Source: Alphaproteobacteria bacterium
GTDB lineage: Bacteria; Pseudomonadota; Alphaproteobacteria; UBA8366; CAVOAK01
Direction: 5' to 3'
Assembly (NCBI GenBank): GCA_965217615.1
Contig: CBDCIT010000040.1
Location: 6,053 to 70,052, forward strand
DNA: 64,000 nt
Below the pieces are notes generated by a model, which did not search any database, had not been told where the DNA came from, and saw only the letters and a list, made by a program, of their open reading frames with translations. A program made the position numbers and the translations under genes. This document shows positions 1,427 to 29,478 of this stretch, piece by piece. The number at the start of each line of letters is the position of its first letter. Positions within the stretch are counted from its first letter, which is position 1.

Positions 1427-2026
1427 TTGAGCACCGAGAATGCGGAACGGGCGGATGGCCTGGCCAAGTCGATACGCGAAGATGGAACCGCGCTGATGCG
1501 CAGCGCTGGACACGGCGACGCCTCGGCTTGCCGCATTCTCGTCGACCGCCATCTTCGTTCGATCGTCAGCTTTGCATATCGTTTCCTCGGTGACTTTGCA
1601 GAGGCGGAGGATGTGGCTCAGGAAACCTTCCTCCGATTGTGGCGGCATGCTCATCGGTGGGAGGACCGCGCGCGGCTTACAACCTGGCTGCACCGTGTCG
1701 CTCGAAACCTTTGCATCGATTTGCTGCGGAAGAAGCGACCGGCGGCTGTGGAAGACATTGCCGATCATGCCGATCCGGCGAAAGACCAGGCGGCAGCCTT
1801 GCATCGCGATTCAGCGGCACGGCACGTCATCGCCGCGCTTGCAGGGTTGCCTGAACGACAGCGTGCCGCGGTGGCGCTGACCCACTATCAGGGCCTCAGC
1901 AACATTGAAAGTGCCGAAGTCATGGGGGTCAGCGTCGAAGCGCTCGAGTCCCTTCTGTCGCGTGCGCGTCGCGGATTAAGGGATCGCCTGATGCCGCTCC
2001 GTGACGATCTCATAGGAGACCTTTGA
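1427..2026 (+). CDS. ECF-type RNA polymerase sigma-70 factor
   Basis: Region 2 and 4 motifs are present (DVAQETFLRLW, TWLHRVARNLCIDLLR, GLSNIESAEVMGVSVEALESLLSRAR). The start is uncertain (TTG 1427 or ATG 1496). The ORF-track start at 1262 lies inside the IS256 end. Confidence 0.85.
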   Translation: MSTENAERADGLAKSIREDGTALMRSAGHGDASACRILVDRHLRSIVSFAYRFLGDFAEAEDVAQETFLRLWRHAHRWEDRARLTTWLHRVARNLCIDLLRKKRPAAVEDIADHADPAKDQAAALHRDSAARHVIAALAGLPERQRAAVALTHYQGLSNIESAEVMGVSVEALESLLSRARRGLRDRLMPLRDDLIGDL

Positions 2027-2499
2027 TGGCTCGAGAACCGGCTCGAATGGAGCCAATTGATATCCAACGGTTCCAGCAATTGCTGGAAGGCTATGGCGCA
2101 CGTGAAGATCGCTGGCCGGCCGCCGAGCGAGAGGCGTCGTTGGCATTTATGCGGGTCTCGTCGGATGCGCGGAGGCTCCATCATGAAGCGTCCGAGCTCG
2201 ACCGCATTCTCGATCTAGCGATTTCACCTGAACCGTCATCGGAATTGGCGGCACGAGTCGTCGCCACGGCGAGACGCGCACCTAGTTGGGGTGAACGACT
2301 GTCCGTCATTGCCGAGGAGATATGGCCGTTTGGCCGGAAATGGCAGGCCGCGGCGATATTCGCCTCGGCAGCGATCCTCGGGCTCGCACTGGGAACCGTT
2401 CCGCTGCCGCCAACGGCGGGCCAGGACGAATTGCCGATCATTGAGGAAATAGCCCTGCTTACATTCGGACCCGAACTCACCACGGAGGACCAGGAGTAA
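2026..2499 (+). CDS. putative anti-sigma factor / single-pass membrane protein cotranscribed with the ECF sigma
   Basis: ATG 2026 overlaps the sigma stop (TGATG). There is one hydrophobic segment (AAAIFASAAILGLALG). The position is typical of a cognate anti-sigma factor, but no recognisable zinc-binding motif is present. Confidence 0.5.
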   Translation: MAREPARMEPIDIQRFQQLLEGYGAREDRWPAAEREASLAFMRVSSDARRLHHEASELDRILDLAISPEPSSELAARVVATARRAPSWGERLSVIAEEIWPFGRKWQAAAIFASAAILGLALGTVPLPPTAGQDELPIIEEIALLTFGPELTTEDQE

Positions 2500-2960
2500 T
2501 GCCACAAATGTCAAAGCGATGGGCGATCGTCCTCTTTTCGTCGCTCGCCCTCAATCTGTTTATCGGCGGCGTATTCGTCTCGCATTGGGCGTTCCACGGC
2601 CGCGATGTCGCGAGGTCCCACGCATTCGGGCTCCGTGGTGCGAGCCGCCACATGGATGAGGATACCCGAGCCGCGATGCGTCGCATGTGGTCGGGACATG
2701 CTGACGAAATGCGTCCGCTTTGGGAAACGACGCACCAGACGGTACAAGAATCCGTCGCAGCGTTTAGTGCAGAGCCGTTCGACAGAGGCGCTTTGGAGGC
2801 CGCGCTGGCGAAGGCGCTGGCGGCTTCCGTCGCATTGCAAGAGGCGTTTCACGCGGCGATTGTTGGCACGGCACAAGAACTGACACCGGAGCAGCGTCGC
2901 AGTCTTTCCAACGCCGCTTCTCGTCGCTTGCATCGACTGCCGGGCGGGCGCCGGAAGTAA
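2499..2960 (+). CDS. periplasmic heavy-metal-sensor / Spy-CpxP-like protein
   Basis: The start overlaps the upstream stop (TAATG). It has an N-terminal hydrophobic anchor (WAIVLFSSLALNLFIGGVFV) and a helical C-terminal part with LTPEQR. This third-gene arrangement is common after ECF sigma/anti-sigma pairs. Confidence 0.6.
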   Translation: MPQMSKRWAIVLFSSLALNLFIGGVFVSHWAFHGRDVARSHAFGLRGASRHMDEDTRAAMRRMWSGHADEMRPLWETTHQTVQESVAAFSAEPFDRGALEAALAKALAASVALQEAFHAAIVGTAQELTPEQRRSLSNAASRRLHRLPGGRRK

Positions 2961-3123
2961 GGGGGAGTTGCTGCTCGCCTGCCGGCAAACGAATAGGTCG
3001 GAAATCGTTGCTTCGGAACGAGCAAGAATAGGAACGTCCGCGCCAACCCGCCGCTGAACCGTCTTCCATGTCCGCGCACAACACGTCAAATTGACGCCGG
3101 CTGGATAGGGGAGCGAAAACGCG

Positions 3124-5244
3124 ATGTCGTCGAAACCGCCGATTGCTGCCAAGCGCAAAACCAAGACCGAGCGCCACGGATATCTGCAACAGGACGACTA
3201 TGCCTGGCTCAAGGCGCCGAATTGGCAGCAGGTGATGCGCGACCCCGGCGTGTTGGATCCCGATATCAATGCCTATTTGGAGGCTGAAAACGCCCACACA
3301 ATGGATATCTTGGCGCCGGTCGAAGGCTTAAGACAGCAGCTGCTCGAAGAAATGAAGGGCCGCATCAAACAAGACGATTCAACGGTTCCTGCACAAGATG
3401 GCGCCTATGCTTACTACCAACGATACGAGACCGGTGGCCAGCATCCGATCTTCTGCCGTCGTCACGGCGCAAACGGCGCGCCGGAAGAGACGCTCCTCGA
3501 TGCCGAGCGCATGGCGGCCGACGAAGCCTTTTTTCGGATCGCTGGATGCGGACACAGCCCGGACCACCGCCGCTTGGCCTACGCCTTAGATTTGAAGGGC
3601 TCTGAATACTACACGGTGCACGTTAAGGACCTTGAGTCCGCGGATCTGCTTGCCGATCAAATCGCCGATACACAGGGCGGCATCGTCTGGGGCAATGATG
3701 GCCAATCGCTAATCTATGCCAGGCTCGACGAAAATCACCGGCCGTCGCAAGTGTATCGTCACCTGCTCGGGGATGAGGTCGAAAACGATCAGCTACTCTA
3801 TGAGGAGACAGATCCCAGTTTCTTCGTCTCGATCGGTAAGACCGAGAGTCGGCGCTTCATCGTCATCAAGTCGAGCGACCACGGATTGACGGCTGAGGTC
3901 CGCACACTCGATGCCGACGTGCCGAATTCGATGCCGGTGCTGTTTGCCGCCCGCGACGAGGGCATCGACTACGATATCAGCGACCACGGTGATCGATTCC
4001 TCATTCTGACGAATGCTGACGATGCAATCGACTACAAGATCATGGAAACGCTGATCGCGTCCCGCGATCGTACTCATTGGCGCGACATGGTGCCGCACGA
4101 ACCGGGTCGTCTGATCAGGACCCTGGAGGTCTTTCACGACTATCTGGTATGGCTGGAACGGTCGGAAGGCTTGCCGCGTCTCGTCGTGATGCGGTTTGCC
4201 GATGGTGATCGCCATGAGGTCTCGTTCGACGAGGAAGCCTACGATCTGGGGATCGTTCCCGGCTACGAATACGAGACCCCGAATTTACGCTTCTCGTATA
4301 GCTCGCTAACCACGCCGCGTCAGACTTTCGACTACGGCATGGGCAATCGTAGCCGGACACTGCGCAAGGAGCAGGAGATCCCGAGCGGCCACGATCCCTC
4401 TGCGTATCTAAGCCGTAGGCTCTACGCGACAAGCCACGATGGAACGCAGGTGCCGATCTCGCTGTTCCATGCTCGGTCCACGCCGATTGACGGGACTGCA
4501 CCGCTCCTGCTGTACGGTTACGGATCCTACGGCCTATCGATTCCGGCTAGTTTTGCAGCTAACCATCTGAGCTTGGCGGATCGCGGATTCGTCTATGCGA
4601 TCGCGCATATTCGCGGTGGCACCGACAAGGGCTATGCGTGGTACTTCGACGGCAAGCTCCGCAACAAACGCAACACGTTCCTCGACTTCATCGCCGCTGC
4701 CGAGCATTTGATCGGCAGCGGCTACACGCAAAAGCAGCGAATTGTTGCGCAAGGCGGCAGCGCCGGCGGCATGTTGATGGGGGCGGTCGCGAACATGCGG
4801 CCCGAACTATTCAAAGCAATCATCGCCGAAGTGCCATTCGTCGATGTGCTGAATACGATGTGCGACGCGGACCTGCCGCTGACGCCGCCGGAATGGACGG
4901 AATGGGGCAACCCGATCAGTGACAAGCAAGCCTACGATACCATTCGCTCCTATTGCCCCTATTCCAATGTCGCTCGCCAATCCTATCCGGACATCCTTGT
5001 GACCGCCGGCCTGACCGACCCGCGCGTCACATATTGGGAGCCCGCAAAATGGGTAGCGAAACTGAGGGCGCTCAAGGCAGACGAAAATCTACTGCTTCTG
5101 CGCACGATTATGGACGCCGGGCATGCGGGCGCGTCAGGACGCTTCGAGAAATTGGAAGAGGTCGCTCTGGTTTACGCGTTTGCGCTTATGGGCACCTCTA
5201 AAAAAATGCCATTTTCGCGCACCGTCGGTTTAGAATCGGGTTGA
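3124..5244 (+). CDS. ptrB: S9A serine peptidase, oligopeptidase B (protease II); last codons now supplied by IS5 sequence
   Basis: 706-aa ORF with the catalytic block GGSAGGMLMGAVANMRPELFKAIIAEVPFVDVLNTMCDADLPLTPPEWTEWGNP. The IS5 left end sits at 5189, inside the 3' end of the gene. Confidence 0.85.
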   Translation: MSSKPPIAAKRKTKTERHGYLQQDDYAWLKAPNWQQVMRDPGVLDPDINAYLEAENAHTMDILAPVEGLRQQLLEEMKGRIKQDDSTVPAQDGAYAYYQRYETGGQHPIFCRRHGANGAPEETLLDAERMAADEAFFRIAGCGHSPDHRRLAYALDLKGSEYYTVHVKDLESADLLADQIADTQGGIVWGNDGQSLIYARLDENHRPSQVYRHLLGDEVENDQLLYEETDPSFFVSIGKTESRRFIVIKSSDHGLTAEVRTLDADVPNSMPVLFAARDEGIDYDISDHGDRFLILTNADDAIDYKIMETLIASRDRTHWRDMVPHEPGRLIRTLEVFHDYLVWLERSEGLPRLVVMRFADGDRHEVSFDEEAYDLGIVPGYEYETPNLRFSYSSLTTPRQTFDYGMGNRSRTLRKEQEIPSGHDPSAYLSRRLYATSHDGTQVPISLFHARSTPIDGTAPLLLYGYGSYGLSIPASFAANHLSLADRGFVYAIAHIRGGTDKGYAWYFDGKLRNKRNTFLDFIAAAEHLIGSGYTQKQRIVAQGGSAGGMLMGAVANMRPELFKAIIAEVPFVDVLNTMCDADLPLTPPEWTEWGNPISDKQAYDTIRSYCPYSNVARQSYPDILVTAGLTDPRVTYWEPAKWVAKLRALKADENLLLLRTIMDAGHAGASGRFEKLEEVALVYAFALMGTSKKMPFSRTVGLESG

Positions 5245-23469: not shown

Positions 23470-24913
23470 CAGCCCGTTGATTAAGTCGGCGCCGTCTGAT
23501 TCTCTGGTTCCCTGATTTGCAGGGGGATTTGCCGATGGCGATGGGACGGCAGAAGGCTGGTCAGGGGGACCTGATGGTGAGCTGGTCGGAGATGCCGCGC
23601 TCTCCGGGTCATGTGTTTTATGACCGCTTGCAGTCGGTGCTGATCGAGGGCGGCTTCGACGCCTTTGCCGAGGCGAGCTGCCGGCCTTATTACGCGGCCC
23701 GGATGGGCGCGCCCTCGGTGCCGCCCGGGCGCTATTTCCGGATGCACCTGGTGGGCTACTTCGAGGGCATCGACAGCGAGCGCGGTCTGGAGTGGCGCTG
23801 CTCGGACTCGCTTTCGCTGCGGGCGTTCCTGCGACTGGGGAGCCGTGATCGGGTACCGGACCATTCCTGGCTGTCACGGAGCCGCACGCGCCTGCCCCAT
23901 GAAGTCCACGCGGCGGTCTTCGACTGGGTTCTGGTGCTGATCGCCGAGGCGGGGCTGATCAAGGGCGAGCGCATCGGCGTCGATGCCTCGACCATGGAGG
24001 CCAACGCGGCGCTGCGGAACATCGTGCGGCGCGCCAACGGCGAAGGCTACCGGGAGATGCTGGAGCGCCTGGCCCGGGAAAGCGGCGTCGAGACACCCAC
24101 GGCCGAGGACCTGGCGCGTCTGGAGCGGAAGCGCAAGGGCAAGAAGCTTTCCAACACGGATTGGGTTTCGAAGAGCGACCCCGAGGCCAAGATCGCCAAG
24201 ATGAAGGACGGCACGACGCATCTGGCCTACAAGCCCGAGCACGCGGTGGATCTGGACACCGGCGCGGTGGTGGCGGCCGAGCTGCACCCGGCCGATGAGG
24301 GCGACACCACGACGCTTTCCAAGACCCTGGCGAAGGCCGAGGCAAACCTCGGGGCGGTGGATGCGGCACCGACGGCGGAGGACCCGGCCGAATGCGTCGC
24401 CGACAAAGGTTATCACTCACGGGCGGTCTTGAGGGCTCTGGACGACAGTCCCTGGAAGACCCGGATCGCGGCGCCCAAGCAGACCGGCTTTTCGCGCTGG
24501 CACGGTGATGAGGCGGCGCGGCGCGCGGTCACCAACAACCGTGCGCGGCTCAAGTCCGGGGTCGCCCGCGAGGCCTTCAAGCTGCGCGCCGAGATCGTCG
24601 AGCGCTGCTTTGCCCACAACCTCGATCGTGGCGGCATGCGACGAACCTGGCTGCGCGGGCGAGAGAATGTGCACAAGCGATACCTGCTCCACGTCGCCGG
24701 CCACAATCTATCGTTACTGATGCGCCAGCTCATCGGCGCCGGCACCCCGCGGGAGGCCGTGGCGGGCGGATATGGCGGTATTTTCGTTCTGCTCACGCCC
24801 ACCGGGGCCATGCTGGTGGCACGGGGGGTTTCGCAAAGCGGCCAGTCGGCTTTCGCCGCCGCATTCCTCATCTGGGGGTGAGAGCCGGAAAAAGCCACTT
24901 AATCAACGGGCTG
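23470..24913 (+). mobile_element. IS5/IS1182-like insertion sequence, copy B (1,444 bp)
   Basis: 17-bp terminal inverted repeats CAGCCCGTTGATTAAGT. The 4-bp duplication ATAG is at 23466..23469 and 24914..24917. It is inserted in the IS66 transposase gene. Confidence 0.93.
23535..24881 (+). CDS. IS5/IS1182-like DDE transposase (about 448 aa)
   Basis: N-terminal DUF772-like block (FYDRLQSVLIEGGFDAF..GRYFRMHLVGYFEGIDSERGLEW), KMKDGTTHLAYKPEHAVD, and C-terminal ADKGYHS..IVERCFAH. The start is ATG 23535 or TTG 23517. Confidence 0.88.
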   Translation: MAMGRQKAGQGDLMVSWSEMPRSPGHVFYDRLQSVLIEGGFDAFAEASCRPYYAARMGAPSVPPGRYFRMHLVGYFEGIDSERGLEWRCSDSLSLRAFLRLGSRDRVPDHSWLSRSRTRLPHEVHAAVFDWVLVLIAEAGLIKGERIGVDASTMEANAALRNIVRRANGEGYREMLERLARESGVETPTAEDLARLERKRKGKKLSNTDWVSKSDPEAKIAKMKDGTTHLAYKPEHAVDLDTGAVVAAELHPADEGDTTTLSKTLAKAEANLGAVDAAPTAEDPAECVADKGYHSRAVLRALDDSPWKTRIAAPKQTGFSRWHGDEAARRAVTNNRARLKSGVAREAFKLRAEIVERCFAHNLDRGGMRRTWLRGRENVHKRYLLHVAGHNLSLLMRQLIGAGTPREAVAGGYGGIFVLLTPTGAMLVARGVSQSGQSAFAAAFLIWG

Positions 24914-25662
24914 ATAGGGCTGCCCGCACCGTCCGCAGACGCACGCATCCGGCGGCGGGTTGTACTCTTCGGTTCGCTCCTCGAGCCCGGGCCGCTGGGT
25001 GCGGCCGTGGCCGGGCGCGCCGTGCTGCTGGCCGCGCTTACGCTCCGAGCGCGGTTTGTCCTGCTGCTCGCTCTTGCGGCCGTAGAGCGCTCTCGACAGC
25101 ACCGCTCCGGTCGCGCGAAGCCTCTCAAGCTGGGCTTCCAGCGTCTCGATCCGGTTCCGTGACGTCTTCGCGCCCTTGCGCAGCCGGGCGTTCTCCCGGG
25201 ACAGCGACTTGATCGTGGCCTTCTGGCGCCGCGACCTTCGCAGGGCCCTGCGGAGATCGGCGTCTGCAACGGACAGCGACTTCGACAACGTCTTCCCGAC
25301 CGCTCGAAGCCCGGCAAGCTCGGACTCGAGTGCCTTCCTGATCGCGCGAAGTTTGGCAGGCTGAACCTCCAGCGCCGCTTTCCGGGTCTCCAACTTCCGC
25401 ACGGTCCTGTGCAGCCGGGCATTCTCCTTGCGCAGCGTGTTGAGCGTCGTCTTCTGGCGCCGCGATCGCCTCAACGCCGCGCGCAGTTGAGTGGCCTCGT
25501 CGCACGGAAGCTTCGACAGCGTCGCCCCGGCCGCCCGGAGCTTGACGAGCCGGGCCTTCAACTTCTCCTTCCCGGCCTTGGACACCTCCAGGGCATGGCG
25601 CAGCCAGAAAACCTCGTCGGACAGCGACCGGGCACGGGCCTCGCTGTGGCCCAATATCCTCA
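24914..25662 (-). pseudogene. IS66-family transposase, middle segment
   Basis: Coiled-coil repeats (LRRALRRSRRQK.. twice), then LYGRKSEQ and CVCGRCG as in the IS66 TnpC N-terminal region. Bounded by the intron 5' end (25663) and IS copy B (24913). Confidence 0.8.
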
Positions 25663-26179
25663 GTGCGCCGTGGAAAGGTGCGTTTTCCTGGTGGGTGCGA
25701 ACCCCACCCAACAATTGTCGCTTTCGGTTGGTAGCAGCCAGGGCGGCCTACGGAGGTAACGATGTAGACCGAAGCACTCTGGTGACAAAGGGCTGTGTTG
25801 AGCAGTTTAGCGACCATGCAGGCGTGTGCCAGGCTAACTGGCAGAGGATAGCCGGTGAGAGTCCGGTAGGGAGTAGAGGTTAACCACCACTCTCGCCCCG
25901 AGTCATGCGCCGGTCGTCGCGAGGCGGCAGGTGAAGCGTTGACAGGGGTGCGGATGGGCAGGGCAACGGAGCATCGAAAGGTTGCTTGTCTGGAGAGCCG
26001 AGACTGTGCCTGCGGTCGAAGGCAACACCGACATCACCGACATGGTGAGGGGATGTTGGGCTCCACGGTGTCGAAGAACCCATGCACGTTCGTACGTCCT
26101 CATTGCCGGGACCTGGGAGGTCTCCATTTTGCCCCGAAGTCGTAACGGGGCCGCAAAGGAAAGGATGTATCCGTAACCG

Positions 26180-28003
26180 ATGACGCACGGAATGGAGAAG
26201 TCGGATGAGGGAATAGTACCGATGAAAGCGACGAACAAGGGCGCGCAAGCGCCTGCGGAGTCGCCGGAGGGAAGTGCCTCAACCAAGGGGAATCCGCGAG
26301 ATCAAAGCACGTGCCGGACGCAGTGTCGGGAAAGCGTGTCACAGGCGGTCGCGTGGATACGGCAGGCTGTAACGAGGAAACCGCAGGAGAAACTCACTGC
26401 GCTGCTACACCATGTCACGATAGATGCCCTGACGTGGGCGTTCTTCGAGTTGAAGAAGGACGCCTCGCCGGGGGTGGATGGGATGACGTGGGGAGAGTAC
26501 GAGGAAGGGCTGGAAGAGCGGCTGCTCGACCTTCACGGACGCGTGCACTCGGGAGCGTATCGGGCGCGGCCATCCCGGCGGGTCGAAATACCCAAACCGG
26601 ATGGCGGGACACGACCGCTCGGCATTGCCGCACTGGAAGACAAGATTGTCCAGAAAGCGGTGGTGGAAGTTATCCTGACGCCAATTTACGAGCCGGATTT
26701 TCTCGGGTTCAGCTACGGGTTCCGACCGGGGCGTGGGGCGCACGACGCGCTTGATGCTCTGGCCTTCGGGATAGAACGGCGCAAGGTCAACTGGATAGTG
26801 GACTGTGACATCCGCGGATTTTTCGACAATGTCTCTCGGGACTGGCTGGTCCGGTTTCTTGAGGATCGCATCGGAGACAAGCGGGTCATCAGGCTGATCG
26901 CCAAATGGCTGAATGCCGGCGTCATGGAAGATGGCGAGTGGCGGGATAACTTGCGAGGAACGCCTCAGGGCGCGGTGGCTTCACCGATTCTCGCGAACAT
27001 CTACCTGCACTACGTCCTCGACCTCTGGTTCCAGAAGAAATGGCGCACCCGTGTGGCCACGGGGGCAACAATCATCGTGCGGTATGCCGATGACTTCGTG
27101 GTCGGGTTCCAACGCAAACAGGACGCGGAGCGGTTTCTCCACGATCTCAAGGAAAGGCTGGGCCAGTTTGAGCTTGAGCTGCATCCAGACAAGACCCGAC
27201 TCATCGAGTTTGGCAGGTTCGCGATGGCGGACCGCCGGGCACGAGGGGAACGGCGACCGGAGACCTTCGAGTTCCTTGGATTCACGCACTATTGCCGGAA
27301 GAAGAGGAACGGGAAATTCGGACTGGGGCGCAAGCCGATAGCGAAGCGGGTCACGCGGACCCTGAATCGGATCAAAGGGGAGCTCCGTAGGCGGATGCAC
27401 GAAGATGTCCACGAAACCGCGCGCTGGCTGGGTCAGGTGGTCAATGACTTCTGTGCGGAGATCGTTTCCTATGCAGATGACTTCTGTGTTCTCGGCAAGG
27501 CCCCGGCGGCAGACATGCTGCTGGCGGTTACCCGGCTCATGGAAGGGCTGAAGCTGACGGTCAACGAGCAGAAGACCCGATGCCTGCAATGCCCAAGGGA
27601 ACCAATGGCGTTCCTCGGCTACCGGTTCGGATGGAACTACCGCCGGAACGGAGGCGACGCCTATATCGGCAATCGACCGAGCAAGGTGAGCGTTCAGGGC
27701 ATCTGCCGTAAAATCAGTGAGCAAACCGAACGACGCTATGGGCTGCAGGATCCTGAATGGATGGTCAGCAAGCTCAACCGGATGATATCCGGATGGGCGC
27801 AGTACTTCCAGTTAGGGCAGGTCAGCCCCGCCTATGCGGCGGTCGATGCACACGCGACGAAGCGGCTGCGACAGTGGCTCTGTCGGAAGCACAAGGTCAG
27901 GAACGGAAAGTACGTGCGCTTTCCGGACGATCGACTGTGGGAACACTATGGCCTTACCTGCCTTGCGCCGAGGACCAGGGGCTTTCCGTGGGCGAAGGCA
28001 TGA
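26180..28003 (+). CDS. group II intron reverse transcriptase/maturase, apparently chimeric (607 aa)
   Basis: RT motifs PKPDGGTRPLGI, FSYGFRPGRGAHDAL, GTPQGAVASPILANIYL and VRYADDFVVGF, plus the start of a thumb (ARWLGQVVN). These are followed by a second motif-5-to-X block (SYADDFCVLGK..FLGYRF..LNRMISGWAQYF). Confidence 0.85.
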   Translation: MTHGMEKSDEGIVPMKATNKGAQAPAESPEGSASTKGNPRDQSTCRTQCRESVSQAVAWIRQAVTRKPQEKLTALLHHVTIDALTWAFFELKKDASPGVDGMTWGEYEEGLEERLLDLHGRVHSGAYRARPSRRVEIPKPDGGTRPLGIAALEDKIVQKAVVEVILTPIYEPDFLGFSYGFRPGRGAHDALDALAFGIERRKVNWIVDCDIRGFFDNVSRDWLVRFLEDRIGDKRVIRLIAKWLNAGVMEDGEWRDNLRGTPQGAVASPILANIYLHYVLDLWFQKKWRTRVATGATIIVRYADDFVVGFQRKQDAERFLHDLKERLGQFELELHPDKTRLIEFGRFAMADRRARGERRPETFEFLGFTHYCRKKRNGKFGLGRKPIAKRVTRTLNRIKGELRRRMHEDVHETARWLGQVVNDFCAEIVSYADDFCVLGKAPAADMLLAVTRLMEGLKLTVNEQKTRCLQCPREPMAFLGYRFGWNYRRNGGDAYIGNRPSKVSVQGICRKISEQTERRYGLQDPEWMVSKLNRMISGWAQYFQLGQVSPAYAAVDAHATKRLRQWLCRKHKVRNGKYVRFPDDRLWEHYGLTCLAPRTRGFPWAKA

Positions 28004-28013
28004 TCTCGTCGGA

Positions 28014-28046
28014 AAGCCGGATGCCTGAGATAGGCATGTCCGGTTT
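28014..28046 (+). ncRNA. group II intron ribozyme domain V
   Basis: AAGCCGGAUGCCUGAGAUAGGCAUGUCCGGUUU folds as a 9-bp lower helix with the AGC triad at positions 2-4 (third pair G.U), a 2-nt AU bulge, a 4-bp upper helix, and a GAGAU loop. Confidence 0.7.
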
Positions 28047-28144
28047 GATGAGCGGGGGTGAGTGAAACGTGGCTATGGTTGAGGCGGAGGCACCGGCACC
28101 TGGCGAAAGCCGTCGGCAAACAGCGACTCCCTTGATCTACGGCA

Positions 28145-28880
28145 GGGCGCGCCTCCCCTCGACTCTACCCTCCCGAGGGAGCCGAAGGGACTCGCTGGAC
28201 AGCTTCCTGGCGGTCTCCCTGATGCTCTCCGTCCTCTGCTTCTCCTGGCCGAGGCGGTTGTTCAGCTGGAGGATCCGCTTGTCCCGCCGGACCACCTCAT
28301 TGTTGAGCCGGGTGATCTCCTTGCGTAGCGTCCTGATGGTGTCTTTCTGATCCGGAGATCGCTCCAGGGCGGTGCGCCGCCGACGGGTCTCCGCGGGCCG
28401 CGGGCGGATCGTGCCCTGTCGGGCCTCCGGTGCGACCAGAGCCTTGCGCAGTCGTGCGATTTCCTTACGCAGCGCCTCGATCTTGCTGCTCTCATTCGAC
28501 TCGATGCCGGCTTCGAAGAGGAGCGTCTCCAGGCGCGCCACCTCGGCCTGCAAGGAAGGCACATCCCTTGCCGCGCGGCGAGCTTCCTTCGTCTCCTCGA
28601 CGGCCTCGCTCAACCTGCCCCGGCAAGCTTTGAACCGCGACTTCCACGCACCGGCATCGGTACGCGAGGCCACTTCCGCCCAGCGTAGCTCTTCCGCGTG
28701 CGCTTCGGCCGCGTCTGCCCGCGCCCGTTCCCGCTCACACTGTGACCGCCAGCCGCGCGGCGCGCGCTCCGGCACCGACACGGGGGACGACCGGACCCCG
28801 CCATTACCCTCGGCCAGCGTCAGGTCGGTGCCAAAATCCTCGTCCAGAACCGCCATGCGCACGACGATAGCGCATGGCAA
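28145..28880 (-). pseudogene. IS66-family transposase, N-terminal segment (coiled-coil extension)
   Basis: 245 codons plus 1 nt, Arg/Glu-rich heptad-like sequence. Joins in frame to 25662 (..VEGRRAL|RILGHSE..). The start is ATG 28880 or 28856. Confidence 0.7.
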
Positions 28881-28979
28881 ATTGCGTTACCAGCAGAAAG
28901 ACAGCCCCTTGTGGGGCTTCGCCTCAACGCGGGAGATGCGCCTGACGACACCCATTCCACGGCCTGAACGAACACTTAC

Positions 28980-29478
28980 CCCGGCCGAATGCGTCGCCGA
29001 CAAAGGTTATCACTCACGGGCGGTCTTGAGGGCTCTGGACGACAGTCCCTGGAAGACCCGGATCGCGGCGCCCAAGCAGACCGGCTTTTCGCGCTGGCAC
29101 GGTGATGAGGCGGCGCGGCGCGCGGTCACCAACAACCGTGCGCGGCTCAAGTCCGGGGTCGCCCGCGAGGCCTTCAAGCTGCGCGCCGAGATCGTCGAGC
29201 GCTGCTTTGCCCACAACCTCGATCGTGGCGGCATGCGACGAACCTGGCTGCGCGGGCGAGAGAATGTGCACAAGCGATACCTGCTCCACGTCGCCGGCCA
29301 CAATCTATCGTTACTGATGCGCCAGCTCATCGGCGCCGGCACCCCGCGGGAGGCCGTGGCGGGCGGATATGGCGGTATTTTCGTTCTGCTCACGCCCACC
29401 GGGGCCATGCTGGTGGCACGGGGGGGTTCGCAAAGCGGCCAGTCGGCTTTCGCCGCCGCATTCTTCATCTGGGGGTGA
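28980..29478 (+). pseudogene. IS5/IS1182-like transposase, copy A, C-terminal part
   Basis: ECVADKGYHSRAVLRALDD... to the stop at 29476..29478, near-identical to copies B and C. Confidence 0.9.

Follow-up and report, generated by a model that had tools for sequence, protein, structure and literature searches.

A probable internally deleted group II twintron that fuses two reverse transcriptase genes in frame

[quoted passage not shown] In the TeI3/TeI4 twintrons of Thermosynechococcus elongatus, the inner introns are identical and the outer ones have diverged (PMC2882425). Nested introns are also known from Methanosarcina acetivorans, among other cases (PMC4424553), and a twintron is reported from Trichodesmium (PMC4649490). 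For Euglena, a group III intron composed of domains from two group II introns has been reported (Hong and Hallick 1994, here as cited in PMC4424553), and in the 'zombie' twintrons of plant mitochondria a degenerate inner intron cannot splice while the outer intron still does (PMC7049729).

Here we examine a 64,000-nt stretch of DNA (the window, C40:6053-70052) from a 52-contig, 4.07-Mb draft genome estimated to be 83% complete. An element at 25663..28168 is very probably a group II twintron copy that has undergone an internal deletion. The parent is a 3.9-kb twintron (3,914 nt when intact) with an inner intron, A, nested in an outer intron, B. Positions given without a contig are those of the window.

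[quoted passage not shown] It differs from them in that both partners encode their own reverse transcriptase (RT) and belong to distant lineages (29% identity), in that the inner intron lies in domain I of the outer one and not in its ORF or domain IV, and in that the window copy appears to be a deletion derivative across the inner/outer 3' junction. Internally deleted intron fragments are known, TeI3n for example; the window copy resembles such a copy in having lost a large ribozyme block while keeping both ends, and in being presumably immobile, but its deletion crosses between two introns and happens to fuse two RT frames in phase. The Euglena group III intron is, as reported, likewise one unit with 5' and 3' parts from two introns of a former twintron; it is, however, a spliced and functional plastid intron, whereas the window copy has key parts missing and is predicted to be inert. 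With 'zombie' twintrons the window copy shares a degenerate inner intron that should no longer splice, but here the outer intron too is without its EBS1 hairpin and domains II-IVa.

The inserted element and its host locus

The element and its surroundings comprise the following features:

24899..25662, minus strand: downstream half of the interrupted host ORF
25648..25662, plus strand: 5' exon target of B, with an IBS2-like GGCCC at 25648-25652 and IBS1 TCCTCA at 25657-25662 (flanks compared across nine B 5' ends)
25663..28168, plus strand: whole inserted element, 2,506 nt, consisting of the B ends and what appears to be an internally deleted twintron body
25663..25823, plus strand: first 161 nt of B, the 5' part of domain I, ending in the six nucleotides GCAGGC (an A-less copy on C30 joins it to the rest of B)
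25824..26179, plus strand: ribozyme domains I-IVa of A, 5' GUGUG (RF02005; boundaries from the A-less B copy)
26180..28003, plus strand: chimeric ORF of 607 aa, open, stop codon included
28012..28045, plus strand: domain V of B (RF00029, 37.8 bits, slightly short of its gathering score, 40; the stem has a 2-nt bulge and the expected fold)
28046..28168, plus strand: long domain VI or 3' region of B, ending in CUCUAC (same end in all copies of B and of its diverged relative B')
28169..28880, minus strand: upstream half of the interrupted host ORF, for a coiled-coil protein (an uninterrupted paralogue in locus L028 reads through on the minus strand)

The ends of the element are fixed by two empty paralogous sites, C30:445906/445907 and C35:61595/61594, both of which join 25662 directly to 28169. 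B is about 2.0 kb long, starts with GUGCG at 25663, ends in CUCUAC at 28168 and encodes a 446-aa RT/maturase; the window element thus combines a 5' GUGYG with a 3' end fixed by empty sites, and the same 5' (GTGCGCC) and 3' (CTCTAC) ends of B recur at 8-9 other genomic sites. Because both outer ends have been left in place, excision of 25663..28168 restores the host sequence. A first-pass annotation of this DNA had said as much of the unit as it drew it; the clean removal and the two intact outer ends hold, but its 3' boundary at 28144 falls 24 nt short of the true end at 28168. The long 3' region of B is probably behind that misplacement. About 123 nt separate domain V from the 3' end, far more than in domain VI of RF00029, and the Rfam match, which spans 28012-28168 and is assigned to B, needs a large insertion to align. 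Domain VI may be lengthened over 28046-28168, or the intron may carry a 3' extension there; B' does not share the GAUCUAC found inside this stretch at 28134-28140.

The host ORF has only coiled-coil-type matches in Pfam. The element lies antisense to it, so that splicing could not rescue that gene anyway. The interrupted ORF is adjoined at 23517-24881 (plus strand) by an IS5/IS1182-like transposase gene (DUF772 and DDE_Tnp_1), and a second ORF at 28372-29478 (plus strand) is a near-exact repeat of the C-terminal half of that transposase. The intron lies within a stack of nested mobile elements.

The twintron family

The first-pass annotation had suggested a search of the genome for both parental introns, and both were found there, as the inner A and the outer B of one twintron. 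The copies outside the window are:

C10:17529-21442, minus strand: intact twintron
C39:233547-237460: intact twintron
C47:97439-101354: 3.9-kb twintron, intact except for a frameshift in the A protein gene that leaves ORF pieces of 305 and 238 aa
C39:226517-232343: twintron with two inner A copies (226678-228590 and 228591-230503) head to tail in B, joined as CGCGAC/GTGTGCC
C30:152056-154056: A-less B, from which a 1,913-nt block is cleanly absent
C38:6096-8373: A-less B in which about 310 bp (twintron coordinates 2824-3134) are present twice as an internal direct repeat; identity lower, 95-98%
C30:421348-425242, plus strand: diverged outer intron B' with inner A (locus L027)
C30:45070-48964, minus strand: diverged outer intron B' with inner A

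The genome holds at least seven twintron copies, and the twintron is intact in at least four places besides the window (C10, two on C39, C47); the 494-aa and 446-aa ORFs are intact in the C10 and C39 copies. In the C10, C39 and C47 copies, a whole inner intron lies between outer halves that are contiguous in the inner-less copy at C30:152056-154056, which makes them twintrons in the strict sense. The window copy is without the 3' end of its inner intron and is a twintron derivative, not an intact twintron. The tandem A on C39 suggests a second reverse-splicing event, at the IBS1 that is retained beside the first A copy. With the full twintron as query, no twintron was found among 30 related genomes, one of which, of the same genus, has a distant B-like element (66-67% identity).

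Two further arrangements involve these introns. Twintron halves lie on different contigs at C37:8800-10135 and C29:13450-16030, with a 3-nt overlap at A position 1337-1339; this copy was apparently split by another insertion, and the overlap suggests a target duplication. At C30:136219 (plus strand) and C30:136519 (minus strand), two B 5' ends, separated by about 300 bp, point towards each other and have a common upstream flank ending in GTAGCCACCGATTCTCA. The arrangement is inverted and truncated, and one of the B ends, A-less, runs for just 275 nt.

Intron A is 1,913 nt long, with GUGUG at its 5' end and CGAC at its 3' end; it encodes a 494-aa RT/maturase and has a pair of hairpins for domains V/VI. 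The A-less B copies delimit it as a precise insertion after B nucleotide 161. RF02005 scores 166 bits at 25858-26080, in domains I-IV of A, and RF02003 scores 70 bits in the A-less B copy as against 53 bits in the window, where A interrupts it. A start for A at 25695, where GTGCG occurs, was considered and rejected, since the A-less B copies put the start at 25824. RF00029, which detects domain V of B, did not detect that of A. The nearest solved structures for both A and B are IIC-type RTs (E ~1e-44 to 1e-51), a match that does not classify the two introns.

How A finds its site can be read from a candidate EBS1, GCCUGC, in a hairpin loop at 26008-26013. It pairs with an IBS1, GCAGGC, formed by the last six B nucleotides upstream of A (25818-25823); the B' counterpart is GCGGGC, with which it pairs through a G-U pair, and the inner intron's EBS1 thus pairs with outer-intron sequence in both B and B'. 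The A copies inside B and those inside B' show 100% identity and occupy homologous domain I sites; outside A, B and B' are 57-84% identical to each other per 100 nt. Because identical A copies occur in such diverged hosts, A homes into this intron family, and judged by this identity A is a recent invader.

The outer intron has its own target. The nine B 5' ends have a common flank, AGCC(N)...(A/T)TCTCA, and the window IBS1, TCCTCA, has one mismatch to the family consensus (A/T)TCTCA. A loop UGAGAU (L025 2152), in a hairpin homologous to the EBS1 hairpin of A, matches the IBS1 consensus of the nine insertion sites; in B' the same loop is CGUUCU, and the flanks of the two B' copies read AGAACG and GGAGCG. 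The assignment of UGAGAU as the putative EBS1 of B is supported by this covariation of B and B' with their flanks.

The junction and the fused reading frame

Within the chimeric ORF and around its junction, the following can be placed:

26180..27445, plus strand: codons 1-422, those of the intact 494-aa A IEP, covering RT motifs 0-7 and the start of the thumb/X domain
27077-27109 (aa 300-310): VRYADDFVVGF, the first YADD block
27419-27445 (aa 414-422): ARWLGQVVN
27444..27455, plus strand: first copy of a 12-nt repeat, with 27444-27446 from A and 27447-27455 from B
27446..27447, plus strand: putative deletion junction, with the hybrid codon GAC (D423) across it (BLAST break at query 1787/1788, in C10, C39, C47 and C29)
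27449..28000, plus strand: codons 424-607, matching the intact 446-aa B IEP over its residues 263-446 (a 184-aa suffix, identical)
27464-27499 (aa 429-440): VSYADDFCVLGK, the second YADD block
27477..27488, plus strand: second copy of the 12-nt repeat, native to B, coding DDFC of the YADD motif
aa 478-483: FLGYRF
aa 532-543: LNRMISGWAQYF

The first-pass annotation had described here an ORF with two YADD blocks, the second also RT-derived, that joins two intron protein lineages, and in this it was right. The ORF is present and open; in the 607-aa protein Pfam matches RVT_1 in two stretches and GIIM at residues 506-575, and TIGR04416 (NCBIfam, group II RT/maturase) likewise matches in two stretches. 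The 422-aa prefix is identical to the A IEP of the C39 copy, and the DNA of 26180..27445 matches that of the C10 and C39 copies at every base (100%). The second block is literally the sequence of B, whose part of the chimera runs from RT motifs 5-7 through the X/thumb domain (GIIM) to the C-terminal tail, and the A and B IEPs are just 29% identical. The protein therefore consists of A residues 1-422, one hybrid codon (G from A, AC from B) and B residues 263-446. It is not a single RT domain with its own X/thumb domain: RT motifs 0-7 of A and nine thumb-motif residues are followed by motifs 5-7 and the X domain of B.

A conserved two-YADD family, which would have made this layout a normal one, is not borne out. 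In a search of 5.8 billion proteins, 8,000 homologues were scored and the best 120 examined; these are mostly single-RT A-type IEPs of about 480-505 aa that cover about 70% of the query (listed lengths 347-667 aa), and no A+B fusion was found among the best 120 of the 8,000. P0002 (667 aa, 90% query coverage) was considered as a second two-YADD chimera and rejected, being an internal duplication of an A-type IEP alone. Encoded on an ENA contig of 115,896 bp, it has two YADD blocks of the same lineage and is an independent rearranged IEP, unrelated to the A-B fusion.

The genome was searched by BLAST with window positions 25660-28160 and then with the long form as query. Only the window copy is contiguous across 27446/27447, where C10, C39 (two copies), C47 and C29 hold 1,408 extra bp; the parts flanking the junction are 99.8-100% identical to the copies on C10, C39, C47 and C29. 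The missing block corresponds to L025 1802-3209 in twintron coordinates. There is no microhomology at the junction, as the parental breakpoints, CAATG/GATGG and CCGGC/ACTTC, share no base. The ends of the block are not splice-like either: it starts with GAUGG and ends in CCGGC, unlike group II boundaries. RNA pairing between the deletion ends, which could have suggested RT skipping over a hairpin, has a duplex energy of -23.9 kcal/mol and is no stronger than in random controls (mean -27.7, sd 6.0).

The window copy has kept the first 161 nt of B, domains I-IVa of A and domains V-VI of B. Missing from A are the C-terminal part of the thumb/X domain (72 residues) and domains V/VI; missing from B are distal domain I with the EBS1 hairpin (within 1802-3209), domains II-IVa and RT motifs 0-4 (the RT fingers). 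The ribozyme is accordingly of mixed parentage, as the first-pass annotation had expected, the RF02005 part (domains I-IVa) being that of A and the RF00029 part (V/VI) that of B. The compatibility of EBS/IBS and domains that it had proposed to check does not hold up: domains V/VI of A are missing, and so is the B EBS1 that would be complementary to the 5' exon at the outer boundary, which lies in the missing 1,408 bp. With A deprived of V/VI, and B of EBS1 and II-IVa, neither intron should be able to build a core or recognise its own splice sites, and we predict from sequence that the window copy can neither splice nor move and is a dead remnant. The likely binding region for the B protein, domain IVa, is gone, and intact A or B proteins supplied in trans by other copies could at most bind domain IVa of A.

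Origin and significance of the window copy

An internally deleted twintron very probably accounts for the element at 25663..28168. The compact, RT-encoding A homes into a fixed domain I site of the RT-encoding B, after B nucleotide 161, and B itself retrotransposes to sites ending in (A/T)TCTCA. At the window locus, B and A would both once have been present. A single 1,408-bp deletion would then have run from codon 423 of the A protein through codon 262 of the B protein. Its length is 3n+1 and, with the matching frame offset, would have fused the remnants in frame; this is a 1-in-3 chance, and the open frame therefore needs no selective explanation. The deletion could have arisen by end-joining of a DNA break or by a homology-independent template jump during reverse transcription. 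It would be very recent, since what has been retained matches the intact copies with 100% identity. The 607-aa ORF is almost certainly an accidental by-product, to judge from this structure, and not a selected architecture or a new enzyme.

The first-pass annotation had proposed instead that two separate introns of different lineages recombined at a 12-nt direct repeat, ATGACTTCTGTG, with the junction between its two copies. The repeat is real and at the coordinates then given (27444-27455 and 27477-27488), it adjoins the junction, and with exactly two occurrences in the 64-kb window where shuffles gave an expectation of 0 it is far beyond chance. The junction, however, is at 27446/27447, inside the first copy, which consists of ATG from A and ACTTCTGTG from B. 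Natively B holds only this 9-mer, twice, coding HFCA and DDFC, and A, which reads CAATGGATGG at the breakpoint, is without the 12-mer. The first copy was thus made by the junction itself, and the repeat did not mediate the event; read from the parental sequences, it results from the junction and from three bases that happen to agree, and was not what the event acted on. Recombination between the copies would moreover have left one of them and not two, and since the parents were already nested together in one twintron, a single 1,408-bp deletion with zero microhomology suffices. Such an exchange is the least probable of the readings considered, to the point of being hardly tenable. An artefact of assembly or sequencing is unlikely too, though less so than any other alternative: the locus would truly be a full 3.9-kb twintron, the gap coming from a chimeric read or a consensus error. 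The element is multi-copy in a draft of 52 contigs at 83% estimated completeness, the junction is documented by this one assembly, and the 30-nt junction sequence has no match in genome_contigs or metagenome_contigs. In Logan contigs of four public runs with near-identical elements, the sequence at 27446/27447 always continues as the full-length form, and no contig spans the junction. Those runs, however, are probably of a different strain, with a T>C at 27687 fixed in all four, and so do not represent this locus, and such contigs drop rare variants. Runs with a low share carry sponge or marine metagenome labels, which are given no weight as evidence of habitat. Repeat-driven misassembly, furthermore, normally makes its joins within common sequence, of which this junction has not one base; both flanks are also colinear with the empty-site paralogues.

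A working hybrid intron, made of domains I-IVa of A and V-VI of B and relying on the RT-RT fusion protein or, in trans, on the intact proteins of A and B, is very improbable, although the 5' splice site, EBS1 (26008) and IBS1 (25818-25823) of A are intact, as are domain V/VI and the 3' end of B, and the open ORF has the full RT palm and fingers of A and the full X domain of B. The Euglena group III intron, as cited above, would be a precedent, and a hybrid that did work would show a bacterial twintron in the act of giving rise to a new group II intron, the kind of origin proposed for group III introns in Euglena. The chimera is single-copy, with no sign of propagation, and its 100% identity to the parents leaves no time for selection. 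With IEPs 29% identical, and domain V found by RF00029 in B but not in A, tertiary contacts between the two are unlikely to match; splicing from the 5' site of A would leave 161 nt of B behind, and the element is in any case antisense to the host ORF.

Taken as an internally deleted twintron, the window copy is a new instance of known processes, unusual solely in that two RT genes have been fused in phase. By itself it would be a decay product of a mobile element, with no expected function. Its value lies in being a dated, base-exact case of nested introns collapsing into one chimeric unit, with identical parents still in the genome. For annotation, the lesson is that with an "RT" carrying two YADD motifs, a deleted twintron should be looked for first and a new architecture proposed only afterwards. 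The surrounding family is more useful for the study of bacterial twintron dynamics, with its distantly related RT-encoding introns, at least seven twintrons, a tandem A and a B' invaded by the same A.
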